A stretch of DNA of 64,000 nucleotides from a virus (taxonomy: Duplodnaviria; Caudoviricetes): the IMG/VR virus record IMGVR_UViG_2788499951_000002, positions 32,001 through 96,000 of that record; one strand, given 5' to 3'. Shown piece after piece: positions 43,626 to 51,160 of this stretch; position 1 is the stretch's first letter, and each line of letters starts with the position of its first letter. Below the pieces are notes generated by a model that saw nothing but the letters and a program-made list of their open reading frames with translations, was not told the origin of the DNA and searched no databases. Both the position numbers and the translations under genes were made by a program.

Positions 43626-43963
43626 ACATGAAAGACGACTCACATCTGTTCCCTGCTAGTAAAGAAGAATCACCGATGTACCACACCCTGTTCGGGATAG
43701 TGACTTCCACACCGGACCCGTCCATGCAGTCCAAGCCGTTCGTTATGGCCATCAAGGAAGGATCATTCGACACCGTCACAGGAGAGGAGGGTGAAGTTGT
43801 CGAGTACTATGACATGATGGAACCTGACACAGACAAGCTGAAGGGGTGCCTGATCACCATCTATCAGGCGCGATACGGGAACATGTGTGGGACTTTTTCT
43901 GTCGAACCCCATGGACTTGTCCGTGTTGCTGATGATATGATCGATGCATACAACGAACTGTGA
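43622..43963 (+). CDS. Hypothetical protein
   Basis: Coupled ORF; ends MIDAYNEL. Confidence 0.6.
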   Translation: MNMKDDSHLFPASKEESPMYHTLFGIVTSTPDPSMQSKPFVMAIKEGSFDTVTGEEGEVVEYYDMMEPDTDKLKGCLITIYQARYGNMCGTFSVEPHGLVRVADDMIDAYNEL

Positions 43964-43971
43964 GGTGTAAC

Positions 43972-44541
43972 ATGAAATATCAGAACAAACGTATCATCAC
44001 TGACGTCGATGGTGTCCTCCTCGCATACGAGAAGACATTCAGTGAACACATGGGGTGGGACTTTGATGAGAAGTCTGACTCTTATCGGTCATTCGAGTGT
44101 ATGAACAATGATCCGGCATTCTGTGTCGGATCTGCCATCCGTGACTTCAACTCGTCTCCGGAATTCTCCCGTATCCCTCCTCTGGATGGGGCGATTGAGA
44201 TGATCGAGGCTGCGTTATCCTCGGGGTACAAGATCGACGTCATTACCAGTTGCGGTGGGACAGAAGAGATCCATGCGGCTCGGATCAAGAACCTGAAGGA
44301 CGTGTTCGGTGACGTCTTCACCTCGATCACCTGTCTCCCCCTTGGGGCGAGTAAGCGGTCTTCACTCGAGCGGTACAAGAACCAAGGACACATCTGGCTG
44401 GATGACTCGATCAGCCACTATCGAGATGGGCTGACTGCTGGTCTGGGTTCTCGTCTGGTGACTACCCCGTTCAATCGCGGGCTGAAAGACAAGGTTCGTC
44501 GAATCGAGTCATGCGCAGATCTGATCCCGCATCTCGAGTGA
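43972..44541 (+). CDS. HAD-superfamily 5'(3')-deoxyribonucleotidase-like protein
   Basis: ITDVDGVL, VITS, K, WLDDS motifs; PFN. Confidence 0.85.
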   Translation: MKYQNKRIITDVDGVLLAYEKTFSEHMGWDFDEKSDSYRSFECMNNDPAFCVGSAIRDFNSSPEFSRIPPLDGAIEMIEAALSSGYKIDVITSCGGTEEIHAARIKNLKDVFGDVFTSITCLPLGASKRSSLERYKNQGHIWLDDSISHYRDGLTAGLGSRLVTTPFNRGLKDKVRRIESCADLIPHLE

Positions 44542-44590
44542 ATTGGTTGCATAACACGCAACACTGATATTCCAAAACGGTATCAAAAAA

Positions 44591-44632
44591 TTTTGGACTT
44601 CTTGAATCCTTGACATAAATAGAAGTCCAAAA
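44591..44632 (+). promoter_or_regulatory. 12-bp inverted repeat enclosing a TAAATA late-promoter box, upstream of the tRNA cluster
   Basis: TTTTGGACTTCT-N18-AGAAGTCCAAAA; TAAATA at 44616-44621. Confidence 0.65.
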
Positions 44633-44634
44633 CG

Positions 44635-44662
44635 GGGGAGGCCGAATCATTCCTCCCCACCA
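44635..44662 (+). ncRNA. tRNA acceptor-stem-like microhelix ending in ACCA
   Basis: GGGGAGG-(10-nt loop)-CCTCCCC-A-CCA, five nt before tRNA-Asp. Confidence 0.5.
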
Positions 44663-44667
44663 TATAC

Positions 44668-44743
44668 GGCCCTGAGACCAACTGGGATTGGTACCTGTCT
44701 GTCGAACAGGACGCTGCGAGATCGAAACTCGTCTGGGCCGCCA
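44668..44743 (+). tRNA. tRNA-Asp(GTC)
   Basis: Cloverleaf; anticodon arm CCTGT-CT GTC GA-ACAGG; G73; encoded CCA; T-loop ATCGAAA; one U-U pair in the acceptor stem. Confidence 0.85.
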
Positions 44744-44745
44744 AT

Positions 44746-44832
44746 GGAGAATTGGCTGAGTGGCCGAAAGCGCTGGTCTTGAAAACCAGAGGACGTGAAA
44801 GCGTCCCGTGGGTTCGAATCCCACATTCTCCT
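44746..44832 (+). tRNA. tRNA-Ser(TGA)
   Basis: GGAGAAT/ATTCTCC acceptor stem, CTGGT-CT TGA AA-ACCAG, long variable arm, GGTTCGAATCC; no encoded CCA. Confidence 0.9.
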
Positions 44833-44836
44833 CAGG

Positions 44837-44926
44837 GGAAGATTGCCAGAGCGGTCGAATGGGATCGGTTGCTAACCGATTAGAGGTTAGTCCCTCTCAA
44901 GAGTTCGAATCTCTTATCTTCCCCCA
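44837..44926 (+). tRNA. tRNA-Ser(GCT)
   Basis: GGAAGAT/ATCTTCC, ATCGG-TT GCT AA-CCGAT, long variable arm, TTCGAAT, CCA. Confidence 0.9.
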
Positions 44927-44933
44927 ACTTCAT

Positions 44934-45008
44934 TCCGAGGTAGCTCAATGGTAGAGCAGACGGCTGTTACCCGTCAGGTTGTAGGATCGTGCCCTACCCT
45001 CGGAGCCA
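44934..45008 (+). tRNA. tRNA-Asn(GTT)
   Basis: TCCGAGG/CCTCGGA, GACGG-CT GTT AC-CCGTC, G73, CCA; atypical T-loop ATCGTGC. Confidence 0.9.
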
Positions 45009-45020
45009 AACAAAAAGGTG

Positions 45021-45049
45021 TTGACTTCTGGAACCGGATAGTCGATACT
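45021..45049 (+). promoter_or_regulatory. Sigma70-type promoter
   Basis: TTGACT-N17-GATACT upstream of the ORF at 45095. Confidence 0.6.
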
Positions 45050-45094
45050 GCAGTTGTTCCACATCAAACATTCTCCCGAACGCAGAGGTTCAAC

Positions 45095-45616
45095 ATGAAC
45101 TATCTTCAGAATCACATCTACTGCCATGATTCGAACTGGGGTGGTGGTTATGACTGCCGACATGTTGTCACAATCAGCTCTTACGAAGATCATGACGTTG
45201 AAGACTGGGAGAATCTCTTCCTGACTGAAACGGTTGATGTGTTCCGAGCTGAAGAGTACAACCGGATGCGTGAGTTCGATCAGGATACTCCTGAGGAGCG
45301 GTTGAAGCGATACTACACCACTCCCGTCCGTCGCCTCAACCCCGAGGTGCTTGAGTGGCTGGAGGAGAATGTGAAAGACCGTCCAGCTCGTCAGGCTGAA
45401 CACTCCGGTGAAAGTCCGAAAGGATGGTGCATTCCCTCTCTTGAAACCAGAGCGATGTGCACAACCGGTATGAGCTTCTACTTCCATACTCGTGGCAGTG
45501 CGATGAACTTCATCCGCCGCTTCAGTAAGTGGAAGAAGCCGGTACACTACTGCCAGTACTTCACAGATGTGCGCAAGACGTTGGATCTGGAGACAGGCAA
45601 GTACGTGAAAGAATGA
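45095..45616 (+). CDS. Hypothetical protein inserted in the tRNA cluster
   Basis: Start moved to ATG 45095 (GAGG RBS), because the track start at 44948 lies inside tRNA-Asn. Confidence 0.7.
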   Translation: MNYLQNHIYCHDSNWGGGYDCRHVVTISSYEDHDVEDWENLFLTETVDVFRAEEYNRMREFDQDTPEERLKRYYTTPVRRLNPEVLEWLEENVKDRPARQAEHSGESPKGWCIPSLETRAMCTTGMSFYFHTRGSAMNFIRRFSKWKKPVHYCQYFTDVRKTLDLETGKYVKE

Positions 45617-45623
45617 TAGAAAT

Positions 45624-45698
45624 GCCTCGTTAGTTCAATGGTAGAATACTGCGCTTCCAACGCAGTGATAGGGATTCGAATTCTCCTACGAGGCTCCA
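45624..45698 (+). tRNA. tRNA-Gly(TCC)
   Basis: GCCTCGT/ACGAGGC, CTGCG-CT TCC AA-CGCAG, U73, CCA; irregular T-stem. Confidence 0.85.
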
Positions 45699-45703
45699 AA
45701 CTT

Positions 45704-45779
45704 GGAACTTTAGCTCAGACGGTAGAGCGGTGGTTTGAAAATCCACAGGTCGCTGATTCGATTTCAGCAGGTTCCACCA
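45704..45779 (+). tRNA. tRNA-Phe(GAA)
   Basis: GGAACTT/AGGTTCC, GTGGT-TT GAA AA-TCCAC (U-U at 31-39), A73, CCA. Confidence 0.85.
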
Positions 45780-45782
45780 AAT

Positions 45783-45859
45783 AGCGGGGTAGCTCAGCGG
45801 TCAGAGCAGATGGCTCATAACCATCAGGTCGAGTGTTCGAATCACTCCCTCCGCTACCA
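45783..45859 (+). tRNA. tRNA with CAT anticodon (elongator Met or Ile2)
   Basis: AGCGGGG acceptor strand, GATGG-CT CAT AA-CCATC, GAGTG-TTCGAAT-CACTC, ACCA. Confidence 0.85.
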
Positions 45860-46340
45860 TACCGATGTCCACATGGGGCAATAAGAGCCGAAGTGTCGAC
45901 ATTGAAGTACGTGCATTCATAGATGGGTTATGCACGCTAAACAAACAACCCATCACGACGCCGCCCTAGAGCTTCCTCTCCCATACATTGTTGGTGATGA
46001 AACTAGGTAAGAAGATGTAGCCGTTTAGGCACTTGCCACCACCGATGTGCCAATTGCTGTGTGCATGTTGGTCTTTGTCGCTCGCTGAATCAAGTAGGTT
46101 GGTGAGGTGGCTTCTAAAGAGGCCGGAGGACGCTCCGGAAGTCGTGGACTGTCAGATCTGACGCCCTCCCCCGCACACTTACGGTGCGGCCATTGTTGGG
46201 TATTGACCGGCATATTCTGCGCAGTTGGAAGGGTATATCCGTCCCCAGATGTGAATCCGTTTGCATCAGAATCGGTATACTGGTCCACCCGTGGCCGAAT
46301 CAGTACACACGGGGAGTGACATGGTCATGAACATGTTGCG
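45860..46340 (+). ncRNA. Large structured non-coding RNA candidate (multi-pseudoknot), family not identified
   Basis: No convincing ORF; nested long-range helices close the 5' and 3' ends; three pseudoknots and several hairpins found by hand (see findings); bounded by a tRNA 3' end and a terminator. Confidence 0.7.
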
Positions 46341-49261: not shown

Positions 49262-49947
49262 AGAATCTGAACGAGTTCAAGGAAATCAGTGAGATCTTCG
49301 AGGGTAAGGAACTCATCCATCACAGCGACACCGATTTCGAGTGCCCAGTGTGTGGCAAGCACTACAAGACTGAGAAGGGAGCCATCAAGCACCTAAGTTC
49401 TCGGTCTTGTGCGAAGAAACAGGATATCTTTGGTGGGTCCATGTATGAGAGCAACGCATTCATCATGTACACCAACATCGTCCATGACATGAAGCCGAAC
49501 GCCCGAGTCACGATCAAGACCTTCAGAAAGTCACCGATGTACGGACTTGTCATCGACTTCGTCCTCTCGACATCTCTGTTCGAGATCAAGGATCGCGGGC
49601 TATACTTCTCATACCTGCGGGACATTCGTGATCTGCATCCAAACAGCGCATTGAAGGCTGGCACCGAGGAAACAAACGCACGGGAGTTCCGGACGTTCCT
49701 GCAGGTCTACCCGAAGTATGTTGACAGTGCCAAGTTCTTCGGCCAGTATGGTGATGACCTGATCGAAGACGATGAGTTCTTGGTACGGTCTATCGAGAAG
49801 TCAGACATCACCCTGCGCTGGCTCATGGACTGCAGGAAGCACAACTTCGAGAAGATGCTGGATGAACTCCCGATTGGCCTGTCGATGCGAATTGACGCGG
49901 TCGTAACAGCAATGTCAGAGATGGAGAAAGCACATGCGAACCTCTGA
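49258..49947 (+). CDS. Hypothetical protein with a C2H2-like zinc finger
   Basis: FECPVCGKHYKTEKGAIKHLSSRSC. Confidence 0.65.
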   Translation: MKNLNEFKEISEIFEGKELIHHSDTDFECPVCGKHYKTEKGAIKHLSSRSCAKKQDIFGGSMYESNAFIMYTNIVHDMKPNARVTIKTFRKSPMYGLVIDFVLSTSLFEIKDRGLYFSYLRDIRDLHPNSALKAGTEETNAREFRTFLQVYPKYVDSAKFFGQYGDDLIEDDEFLVRSIEKSDITLRWLMDCRKHNFEKMLDELPIGLSMRIDAVVTAMSEMEKAHANL

Positions 49948-51160
49948 ATCCCGTCTGGTGACACATCGCCAGCATCCGACTCTCCCGATTGAGATTCGGT
50001 CATACAACAAGCGAGCCTTCTTTCGCAAGGCTTGGAACGAAGAGACCATCAACTCACGTGGTCACGTGGTCACGCTCGATGGGACTCCTGTGTCCCGCCC
50101 GTTCACCAAGTTCCTGAATATCGGTGAGACGGACGAGTTCTCTCGGGAGAATGTTGAGCGTATGATCGAACTCCATCGAGATGAAGTCCTCTTCAATCCA
50201 AAGTTGAATGGGCACTTCGCTCAGCTCTTCGAATACGAGGGGCAGTGGATCAATACGACCAAGGGATCGTTCGAGCACGACTTCATCGAGCCAGACCGAG
50301 CACTCATTGAGCGTGCTGGATTGACGGATGATGCACTCGCACGAATGAATCCAAACTGGACGTTCCTCTTCGAGATCCTCGGTAACCATGATCGCCACAT
50401 GTTGCACGATATCGATGTGGAGTCATATGCCCACGAGGGGGAATCTGAAACCGCTGTCATCATTGGGGTGTTTGATCGTCAGACATGGTCAGAAGTGCCT
50501 GAGCGTGAAGTCTTTGAGGTTTTGCGCAAGACAGCTGACGTCTTGGATCTCCCGATCCCGCCGATGGTGGAGGGATTCACATATGGTGAAGTTGCATCGG
50601 CTCTGTTGGATCTGAATGAGGATAGGGCCACACCCTCCCAGATTCTGGATGCCCTGTATGATTCAGTGAATTGTGAGGGCATGGTGATCCAGATCCCGTC
50701 ACTGTGTTGGAGGGTGAAGCTGAAGACTCACTGGTTCATCCGGAATCGTTACATGCGCCAGATGACCAACACTCGGGTAGCTCAGATCATCAAGAAGCAG
50801 CGTGAAGACGAGAAGATCTATGCTCGCATCCCCGAGGAATTGCATGATGAGATGGACGAGATCATGTATGGGGTGAAGAATCAACATCGTATCTTCCTCG
50901 AGGAATTTCACCACCTGTCGACCTGCCTGCATGATGAGGGGTTTGTCACCAAGGACGAAATGATCGATGAGTATCGCCGGACCAGTGATGTGGAATCATC
51001 AGACGTCTGGATCACCACCAGCCGTACAATCGACCTGATCATGTTCAAGGCATTCTTCACTGGACATGACGCACTGTTCGATGCTACAGTCGACATGTAC
51101 ATGGCGGCAACGCCGGAACATTCACTGGTTCGAAACCACATGAGAGAGGATTTGTTATGA
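49934..51160 (+). CDS. RNA ligase 1-like (T4 Rnl1 family)
   Basis: SRG, PFTKFLNIGE, motif I KLNG, TKGSF, TFLFE, motif IV EGMV, motif V VKLK. Confidence 0.9.
   Translation: MRTSESRLVTHRQHPTLPIEIRSYNKRAFFRKAWNEETINSRGHVVTLDGTPVSRPFTKFLNIGETDEFSRENVERMIELHRDEVLFNPKLNGHFAQLFEYEGQWINTTKGSFEHDFIEPDRALIERAGLTDDALARMNPNWTFLFEILGNHDRHMLHDIDVESYAHEGESETAVIIGVFDRQTWSEVPEREVFEVLRKTADVLDLPIPPMVEGFTYGEVASALLDLNEDRATPSQILDALYDSVNCEGMVIQIPSLCWRVKLKTHWFIRNRYMRQMTNTRVAQIIKKQREDEKIYARIPEELHDEMDEIMYGVKNQHRIFLEEFHHLSTCLHDEGFVTKDEMIDEYRRTSDVESSDVWITTSRTIDLIMFKAFFTGHDALFDATVDMYMAATPEHSLVRNHMREDLL

Follow-up and report, generated by a model that had tools for sequence, protein, structure and literature searches.

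The 28-nt element at positions 44635-44662 is very probably the remnant of a class-II tRNA-Tyr(GUA) gene that formerly stood first in the tRNA operon of this phage, lost 55 nt from its interior and now persists as an inert leader hairpin. The window analysed here (64,000 nt) corresponds to bases 32001-96000 of an IMG/VR virus record that is 157,856 bp long and carries direct terminal repeats. Its gene content, which includes rIIA, a UvsX-like recombinase, baseplate wedge, large terminase and RnlA-like RNA ligase genes, identifies the genome as that of a marine T4-like myovirus, and the same genome is contained in Tara Oceans assemblies. Comparison of the locus with two related phages shows, at the level of sequence, that an internal deletion in a tRNA-Tyr gene gave rise to the element, and the remnant has no decoding capacity.

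The first-pass annotation had described the element as GGGGAGG, a loop, CCTCCCC, A and CCA, and the window reads exactly so at 44635-44662. Its placement is equally accurate: five nucleotides (44663-44667) separate the element from tRNA-Asp, whose start is called by ARAGORN at 44668, and a palindrome with a TAAATA box (44591-44632) lies directly upstream. The features of the locus are as follows.

44614-44622, + strand: CATAAATAG box resembling a T4-type late promoter, conserved in the relatives L229 and L146; putative promoter
44634-44662, + strand: remnant of the tRNA-Tyr(GTA) gene, from alignments to L146:1858-1942 and to the L229 remnant; position +1 in the original tRNA register is 44634
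44635-44658, + strand: present-day 7-bp hairpin with a 10-nt loop, one pair inward of the original acceptor stem
44635-44641, + strand: acceptor-type 5' strand GGGGAGG, read directly from the window
44642-44651, + strand: loop CCGAATCATT, in which CGAAT is the 3' part of the T-loop and CATT(C) the 3' strand of the T-stem
44652-44658, + strand: 3' strand CCTCCCC, read directly from the window
44659 and 44660-44662, + strand: discriminator A (A73) and encoded CCA, inherited from the tRNA-Tyr gene
44663-44667, + strand: 5-nt spacer TATAC between the remnant and tRNA-Asp
44668-44743, + strand: tRNA-Asp(GTC), called by ARAGORN and scoring 41.1 bits with Rfam; now the first intact tRNA of the operon
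44746-45859, + strand: remaining array of tRNA-Ser(tga), tRNA-Ser(gct), tRNA-Asn, the ORF at 45095-45616, tRNA-Gly, tRNA-Phe and tRNA-Met

As an RNA, the 28-nt element is predicted to form a 7-bp hairpin (-13.1 kcal/mol, z = -2.3) that folds separately from the tRNA-Asp cloverleaf. ARAGORN called no tRNA at 44634-44662, and a cmscan search of 44560-44760 at E <= 10 placed no Rfam family, tRNA included, over the same positions. The D, anticodon and T arms that define a tRNA gene under RF00005 are lacking, as is a score at the gathering threshold of that family (29 bits). ARAGORN finds seven tRNAs in the operon, with tRNA-Asp first, and no tRNA-Tyr anywhere in the 157,856-bp genome.

The origin of the element becomes apparent in L146, a Logan contig of 1,979 bp whose end falls within tRNA-Asp. 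This relative is collinear with the window at about 70% nucleotide identity, with four upstream genes in matching order; the homologue of the nearest upstream gene (43960-44541, a HAD/5'-nucleotidase-like protein) is 75% identical in protein, and 43 of 44 nt agree in the 5' half of tRNA-Asp. Where the window has the 28-nt element, the alignment gives L146 55 extra bases, and at this place, L146:1858-1942, lies an 85-nt tRNA-Tyr(GTA) (ARAGORN; 51.9 bits with Rfam RF00005), separated from tRNA-Asp by the spacer TGT in place of the window's TATAC. The 3' end of this tRNA reads GAATG-TTCGAAT-CATTC-CTCCTCC-A-CCA, and cmscan of L146 assigns the T arm as GAAUG / UUCGAAU / CAUUC. The run CGAATCATTCCTCC, which covers T-loop, 3' T-stem strand and acceptor sequence, is identical in the window and L146, so the loop CCGAATCATT is in fact T-loop and 3' T-stem strand. 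CATTC occurs as T-stem in no other phage tRNA-Tyr among those seen. We also considered the opposite polarity, in which the L146 tRNA had been inserted into an older hairpin, and rejected it because the loop in the window already carries T-loop and T-stem sequence.

A second allele of the remnant is found in L229, a strain with 97.1-97.3% nucleotide identity to the window. Here the remnant reads GGGGGAG-TCCGAAT-CATTC-CTCCCCC-A-CCA, which divides into 7 nt of acceptor 5' strand, 7 of T-loop, 5 of T-stem 3' strand, 7 of acceptor 3' strand, the single discriminator base and the 3-nt CCA. These 30 nt sit in the exact register of the 85-nt tRNA in L146, from which it follows that the deletion spans positions 8-53 and removed 55 nt. 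The L229 hairpin (GGGGGAG/CTCCCCC, 12-nt loop) retains G1:C72 followed by A73-CCA in the original register, and one compensated pair (A3:T70 to G3:C70) is all that distinguishes its stem from that of L146. L146 carries GTT at positions 7-9 and again at 53-55, and we infer a microhomology-mediated deletion at this trinucleotide as the simplest route.

With L146 as the outgroup, the window copy has undergone two changes relative to L229: the T at the deletion junction has become G, and the 3' C-run is one C shorter. The original G1 (44634) has thereby been left without a partner, and seven base pairs are regained through a new inner G:C pair (44641:44652). The 'perfect acceptor stem' of the window is thus offset by one pair relative to the original helix, and from 44635 it happens to present a G:C pair and ACCA. 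The remnant therein retains the acceptor 5' strand, what is left of the T-loop, the T-stem 3' strand, the acceptor 3' strand minus one C, the A and CCA. Against L229 it shows one substitution and one indel, the latter being one of just two small indels across 2.9 kb, and in this alignment its conservation does not exceed that of the flanking sequence.

The stem itself is of a recognisable kind. We scanned IMG/VR for GGGGAGG followed after 52-80 nt by CCTCCCCACCA and tested the matches with ARAGORN. Full tRNAs with those ends numbered 37, of which 32 were tRNA-Tyr(GTA), and phage tRNA-Tyr genes with a GGGGAGG-type stem encode ACCA. The acceptor-type stem, the discriminator and CCA are therefore sequence inherited from the acceptor end of a CCA-encoding phage tRNA-Tyr gene. 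A three-pair difference between the stems of the window and L146 was entertained as a sign of selection and discarded, since the L229 register reduces it to one compensated pair and full-length phage tRNA-Tyr genes use both stem types.

The element accordingly carries the marks of a pseudogene. An intact tRNA stands at the orthologous position in a related genome, L146; homology extends beyond a plain hairpin, through CGAATCATTCCTCC and the exact tRNA register of L229; and essential parts, 55 nt at positions 8-53 with the anticodon included, are gone. A collapsed tRNA gene had been the fallback of the first-pass annotation, and this proved correct; L146 and L229 allow it to be specified as tRNA-Tyr(GTA) minus positions 8-53. 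The intact gene is known from one relative only, the short L146 contig, and a search of IMG/VR for further relatives (using the T-arm/acceptor signature with or without the extra base, and the 5' half of this lineage's tRNA-Asp) gave 0 matches. In INPHARED, blastn with the 2.1-kb region returned generic tRNA matches and no relative; a search of IMG/VR for loci related by ORF 45095-45613 found none; and for the HAD-like protein IMG/VR and metagenomes yielded only relatives of about 33% identity that are not collinear at the locus. Homologues of ORF173 at about 50% identity (L230, L233, L234) have no tRNAs nearby and are uninformative on the locus.

We propose that the deletion most likely occurred between the GTT microhomologies at 7-9 and 53-55, removing the D arm, the anticodon arm, the long variable arm and the 5' T-stem strand and fusing the acceptor 5' strand to the T-loop. 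As the acceptor strands can still pair and the CCA is encoded in the gene, the leftover resembles a microhelix. In the strain represented by the window, the helix later shifted by one pair through the T-to-G substitution and the shortening of the C-run. Transcription from the putative TAAATA promoter would still include the remnant, as the leader at the 5' end of the tRNA operon, and it would fold there as a stable hairpin; RNase P maturation of tRNA-Asp would cut this hairpin off, after which it would presumably be trimmed or degraded. Beyond being a harmless, self-contained leader hairpin it probably has no role, and an inert remnant is the most likely description.

It is conceivable, although we regard it as unlikely, that selection has kept an element of remnant origin for its structural contribution to the operon leader, in which case any resemblance to a tRNA end would be irrelevant. 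A 5' hairpin could shield the primary transcript, or could stop the orphaned G- and C-rich strands from mispairing with downstream tRNAs, and the predicted hairpin does stay apart from the tRNA-Asp cloverleaf. Both alleles form a perfect 7-bp helix followed by ACCA, holding exactly seven pairs despite two changes of which one offsets the other. By parsimony, with L146 as outgroup, both window-specific changes fall on one branch, and the substitution restores the pair removed by the C loss. The two changes may reflect selection for a stable helix, but they amount to one apparent compensatory event, and an 8-bp ancestor may instead have decayed independently in the two strains. Short hairpins directly 5' of tRNAs are, moreover, common in phage arrays, with 89 distinct cases in the loci examined; against this, L146 has no such hairpin, because its putative promoter runs directly into tRNA-Tyr.

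The 89 cases are perfect hairpins of at least 6 bp within 10 nt upstream of tRNAs, collected from loci L151-L228 and L236 onward. Typical examples before tRNA-Asn are TTGGAGA-TTTA-TTCTCCAA-ATTA and GAAACC-CTAA-GGTTTC-TTA, and such short hairpins upstream of phage tRNAs may serve as processing or insulating spacers.

The more striking proposal, that the element is a mimic of a tRNA end, appears very unlikely on the evidence assembled here. It would have the RNA processed to a free microhelix-Tyr with CCA, acting as a substrate for TyrRS or as a decoy or substrate for tRNA-3'-end enzymes or defence toxins. Bacterial TyrRS reportedly charged microhelix-Tyr in the 1995 work of Quinn, Tao and Schimmel on species-specific microhelix aminoacylation. 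With the encoded ACCA, a spacer of 5 nt and the RNase P site of tRNA-Asp, the 3' end could be matured in the manner of a tRNA, and G1:C72 and A73 are bacterial tyrosine identity elements (PMC1934993). Yet the register shifts between strains that are 97% identical, so that the original G1:C72 is lost in the window strain, and in the single case studied of a defence that attacks tRNA-Tyr, the tRNA-Tyr-degrading retron-Eco7, rescue by a phage tRNA-Tyr needed the anticodon and stems intact (PMC11555353).

The phylogenetic distribution also speaks against a mimic. A functional microhelix RNA would be expected to persist in its short form, with compensatory changes, as genomes diverge. We found that form solely in strains of 97% identity or more (L147-L150 and L229) and, in our IMG/VR scans, in no diverged genome; the relative at 70% identity carries the complete tRNA. 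The presence of such a tRNA in related phages was named beforehand as an observation that would count against a purpose-built mimic, and L146 provides exactly that. The suggested 28-nt mimic, decoy or aminoacyl carrier is therefore left unsupported by L146, and L229 removes a further argument made for it, which concerned a shared 10-mer.

The first-pass annotation had noted that ten letters of the element recur in a large ncRNA candidate downstream and raised the idea of a shared binding partner. The string GGCCGAATCA is indeed found again at 46293-46302, but this recurrence is at chance level. Any fixed 10-mer is expected 0.14 times in the window, the element holds 19 different 10-mers of which 7 recur within the window, and 94% of random 28-mers drawn from the window contain at least one recurring 10-mer. 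Nor is the match conserved: the L229 remnant reads GTCCGAATCA while its counterpart of the 46293 site is unchanged, so that the match is absent from this 97%-identical strain. As this 10-mer was the sole support for a common partner, we rejected the link to the large RNA, and with it one more argument for a mimic.

Four unrelated phage arrays (L027, L137/L338, L175 and L187) contain comparable hairpins with stems of 7-8 bp and an NCCA tail, placed 1-2 nt before a tRNA. One could imagine that NCCA microhelices derived from collapsed tRNA genes, among them the microhelix-Tyr described here and the elements of these four arrays, form a recurrent, selected class of small RNA in phage tRNA operons, matured like tRNAs and then charged or engaging 3'-end enzymes or defence factors; we regard this as very unlikely. 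Among stems of at least 7 bp beside tRNAs, NCCA follows in 3 of 14, against a background of 1.7%, an enrichment that is partly biased by the way in which the loci were collected. Decaying tRNA genes account equally well for such hairpins, and the spacers of L175 and L187 are full of degenerate tRNAs.

These elements are individually varied. The hairpin at L027:5036-5063 (- strand), before tRNA-Ile, has a tRNA-Tyr acceptor stem, as does that at L137:366-391 (- strand), before tRNA-Asn, which is shared with two identical IMG/VR loci, including L338, of a cyanomyovirus family. The L137 loop, GAGCAA, matches the start of the D arm of cyanophage tRNA-Tyr, which implies that a separate deletion with other breakpoints occurred there. 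On the minus strands of L175 and L187 stand the related GGCCCCG..CGGGGCC-ACCA and GCCCCGA..TCGGGGC-GCCA, directly before tRNA-Ser-gga and tRNA-Pro-cgg. In Synechococcus phage S-CAM1 (L140:1357-1407), the spacer that separates tRNA-Ala from tRNA-Asn reads GGGGGAG...CTGTA...CCCCCTCCCA just before tRNA-Asn; it bears a weak resemblance to tRNA-Tyr and may be a further-decayed remnant at the place where L137 has its hairpin. An exact scan for the hairpin pattern, with fixed or variable loop, returned mostly unrelated hairpins, many of them antisense terminators or intergenic, with only L027 and L137 adjacent to tRNAs. In INPHARED, a search for relatives of L027 gave no match, and one for relatives of L137 matched at the tRNAs only.

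A chance origin of the hairpin and its CCA, with no relation to tRNA, has a negligible probability and is already refuted by the L146 and L229 comparisons: hairpins of this quality with NCCA do occur about six times in the genome, as in shuffled sequence, but this one stands 5 nt before the first tRNA, carries tRNA-Tyr acceptor sequence with T-loop and T-stem sequence inside, and is orthologous to an intact tRNA-Tyr. The 158-kb genome contains six distinct perfect hairpins of at least 7 bp followed by NCCA, and first-order Markov shuffles give an equal or higher count, so that the shape of the element alone is within chance expectation. Its non-randomness rests on its position, its tRNA-Tyr-type stem and its homology to the intact tRNA of a relative.

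The decay of tRNA-Tyr has a parallel in the same operon. L229 is without tRNA-Gly, tRNA-Phe and tRNA-Met, which were lost in a clean 306-nt deletion between 9-nt direct repeats, AAGTACGTG, located at 45599-45607 and 45905-45913 in the window (counterpart L229:2853-2870). On these alignments, the phage lineage is still shedding tRNA genes. The same deletion alters the final codons of the ORF at 45095-45616, and the roughly 480-nt non-coding stretch downstream retains about 98% identity.

Several further observations concern the operon and its surroundings. The palindrome around the CATAAATAG box differs in sequence and geometry between the window (44591-44632) and L146 (1818-1852): in the window its arms TTTTGGACTTCT/AGAAGTCCAAAA enclose the box, and in L146, where they read TTATGCAG/CTGCATAA, the right arm overlaps it. 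The tRNA-Asp of the window has a T6.T67 mismatch in its acceptor stem, and the L229 copy is fully paired through changes at 2:71 and 67. Both tRNA-Asp (41.1 bits) and tRNA-Ser(gct) were missed by an Rfam run at the gathering threshold. An RnlA-like RNA ligase is encoded at 49934-51157 (phrog_562, E 6e-32), 4 kb downstream of the tRNA operon; the T4 RnlA-type ligase repairs tRNA cut by anticodon nuclease.

Taken as a gene remnant, the element corrects an attractive impression: the striking CCA-terminated microhelix is a tRNA-Tyr with its middle deleted, and pursuit of a new mimic is unwarranted on present evidence. It also provides a snapshot of tRNA loss in a marine T4-like lineage, in which a probable microhomology deletion removed Tyr and, in a sister strain, a repeat-mediated one removed Gly, Phe and Met. 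For annotation the lesson is a modest one, namely that tRNA finders are blind to such remnants, which can pass for designed minihelices. The recurrence of hairpin-NCCA remnants in unrelated phage arrays is a minor thread.

T4 species 1 and 2 RNAs (rnaC/rnaD) are about 120-140 nt long, conserved and known to accumulate. The element resembles them as a small structured RNA (putative in its case) co-transcribed with the tRNAs of a T4-like phage, but it measures only 28-30 nt, and the nearest diverged relative has a full tRNA instead. With the intact phage tRNA-Tyr(GTA) (RF00005, L146:1858-1942) it shares the acceptor stem type, T-loop, T-stem 3' strand, A73, CCA and operon position; unlike that gene it has no D, anticodon or variable arm and no 5' T-stem strand, and hence cannot decode. 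Synthetic microhelix-Tyr and minihelix substrates of aminoacyl-tRNA synthetases (Quinn, Tao and Schimmel 1995, ref. 27 of PMC1934993; tRNA identity review PMC9976931) have in common with it a 7-bp acceptor-type helix, A73, CCA and a stem derived from tRNA-Tyr. These substrates were made in the laboratory, with a tetraloop and an unaltered acceptor stem, whereas the element, a putative RNA, has slipped by one pair and is closed by a leftover T-loop.

The closest likeness in kind is to the tRNA pseudogenes of phage tRNA clusters, for which 'pseudo' tRNAs called by tRNAscan-SE have been tabulated in T4-like phages (PMC1524935). Like them, the element is a decayed tRNA gene in an array beside working tRNAs; its origin is shown by the intact orthologue of a relative, and the lineage is losing other tRNAs too. 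Most reported pseudo-tRNAs retain a recognisable cloverleaf, whereas this one is reduced to acceptor helix and T-loop, which is why tRNA finders miss it completely. The remnant is a more extreme tRNA pseudogene than those tabulated, and the product of ordinary gene decay.
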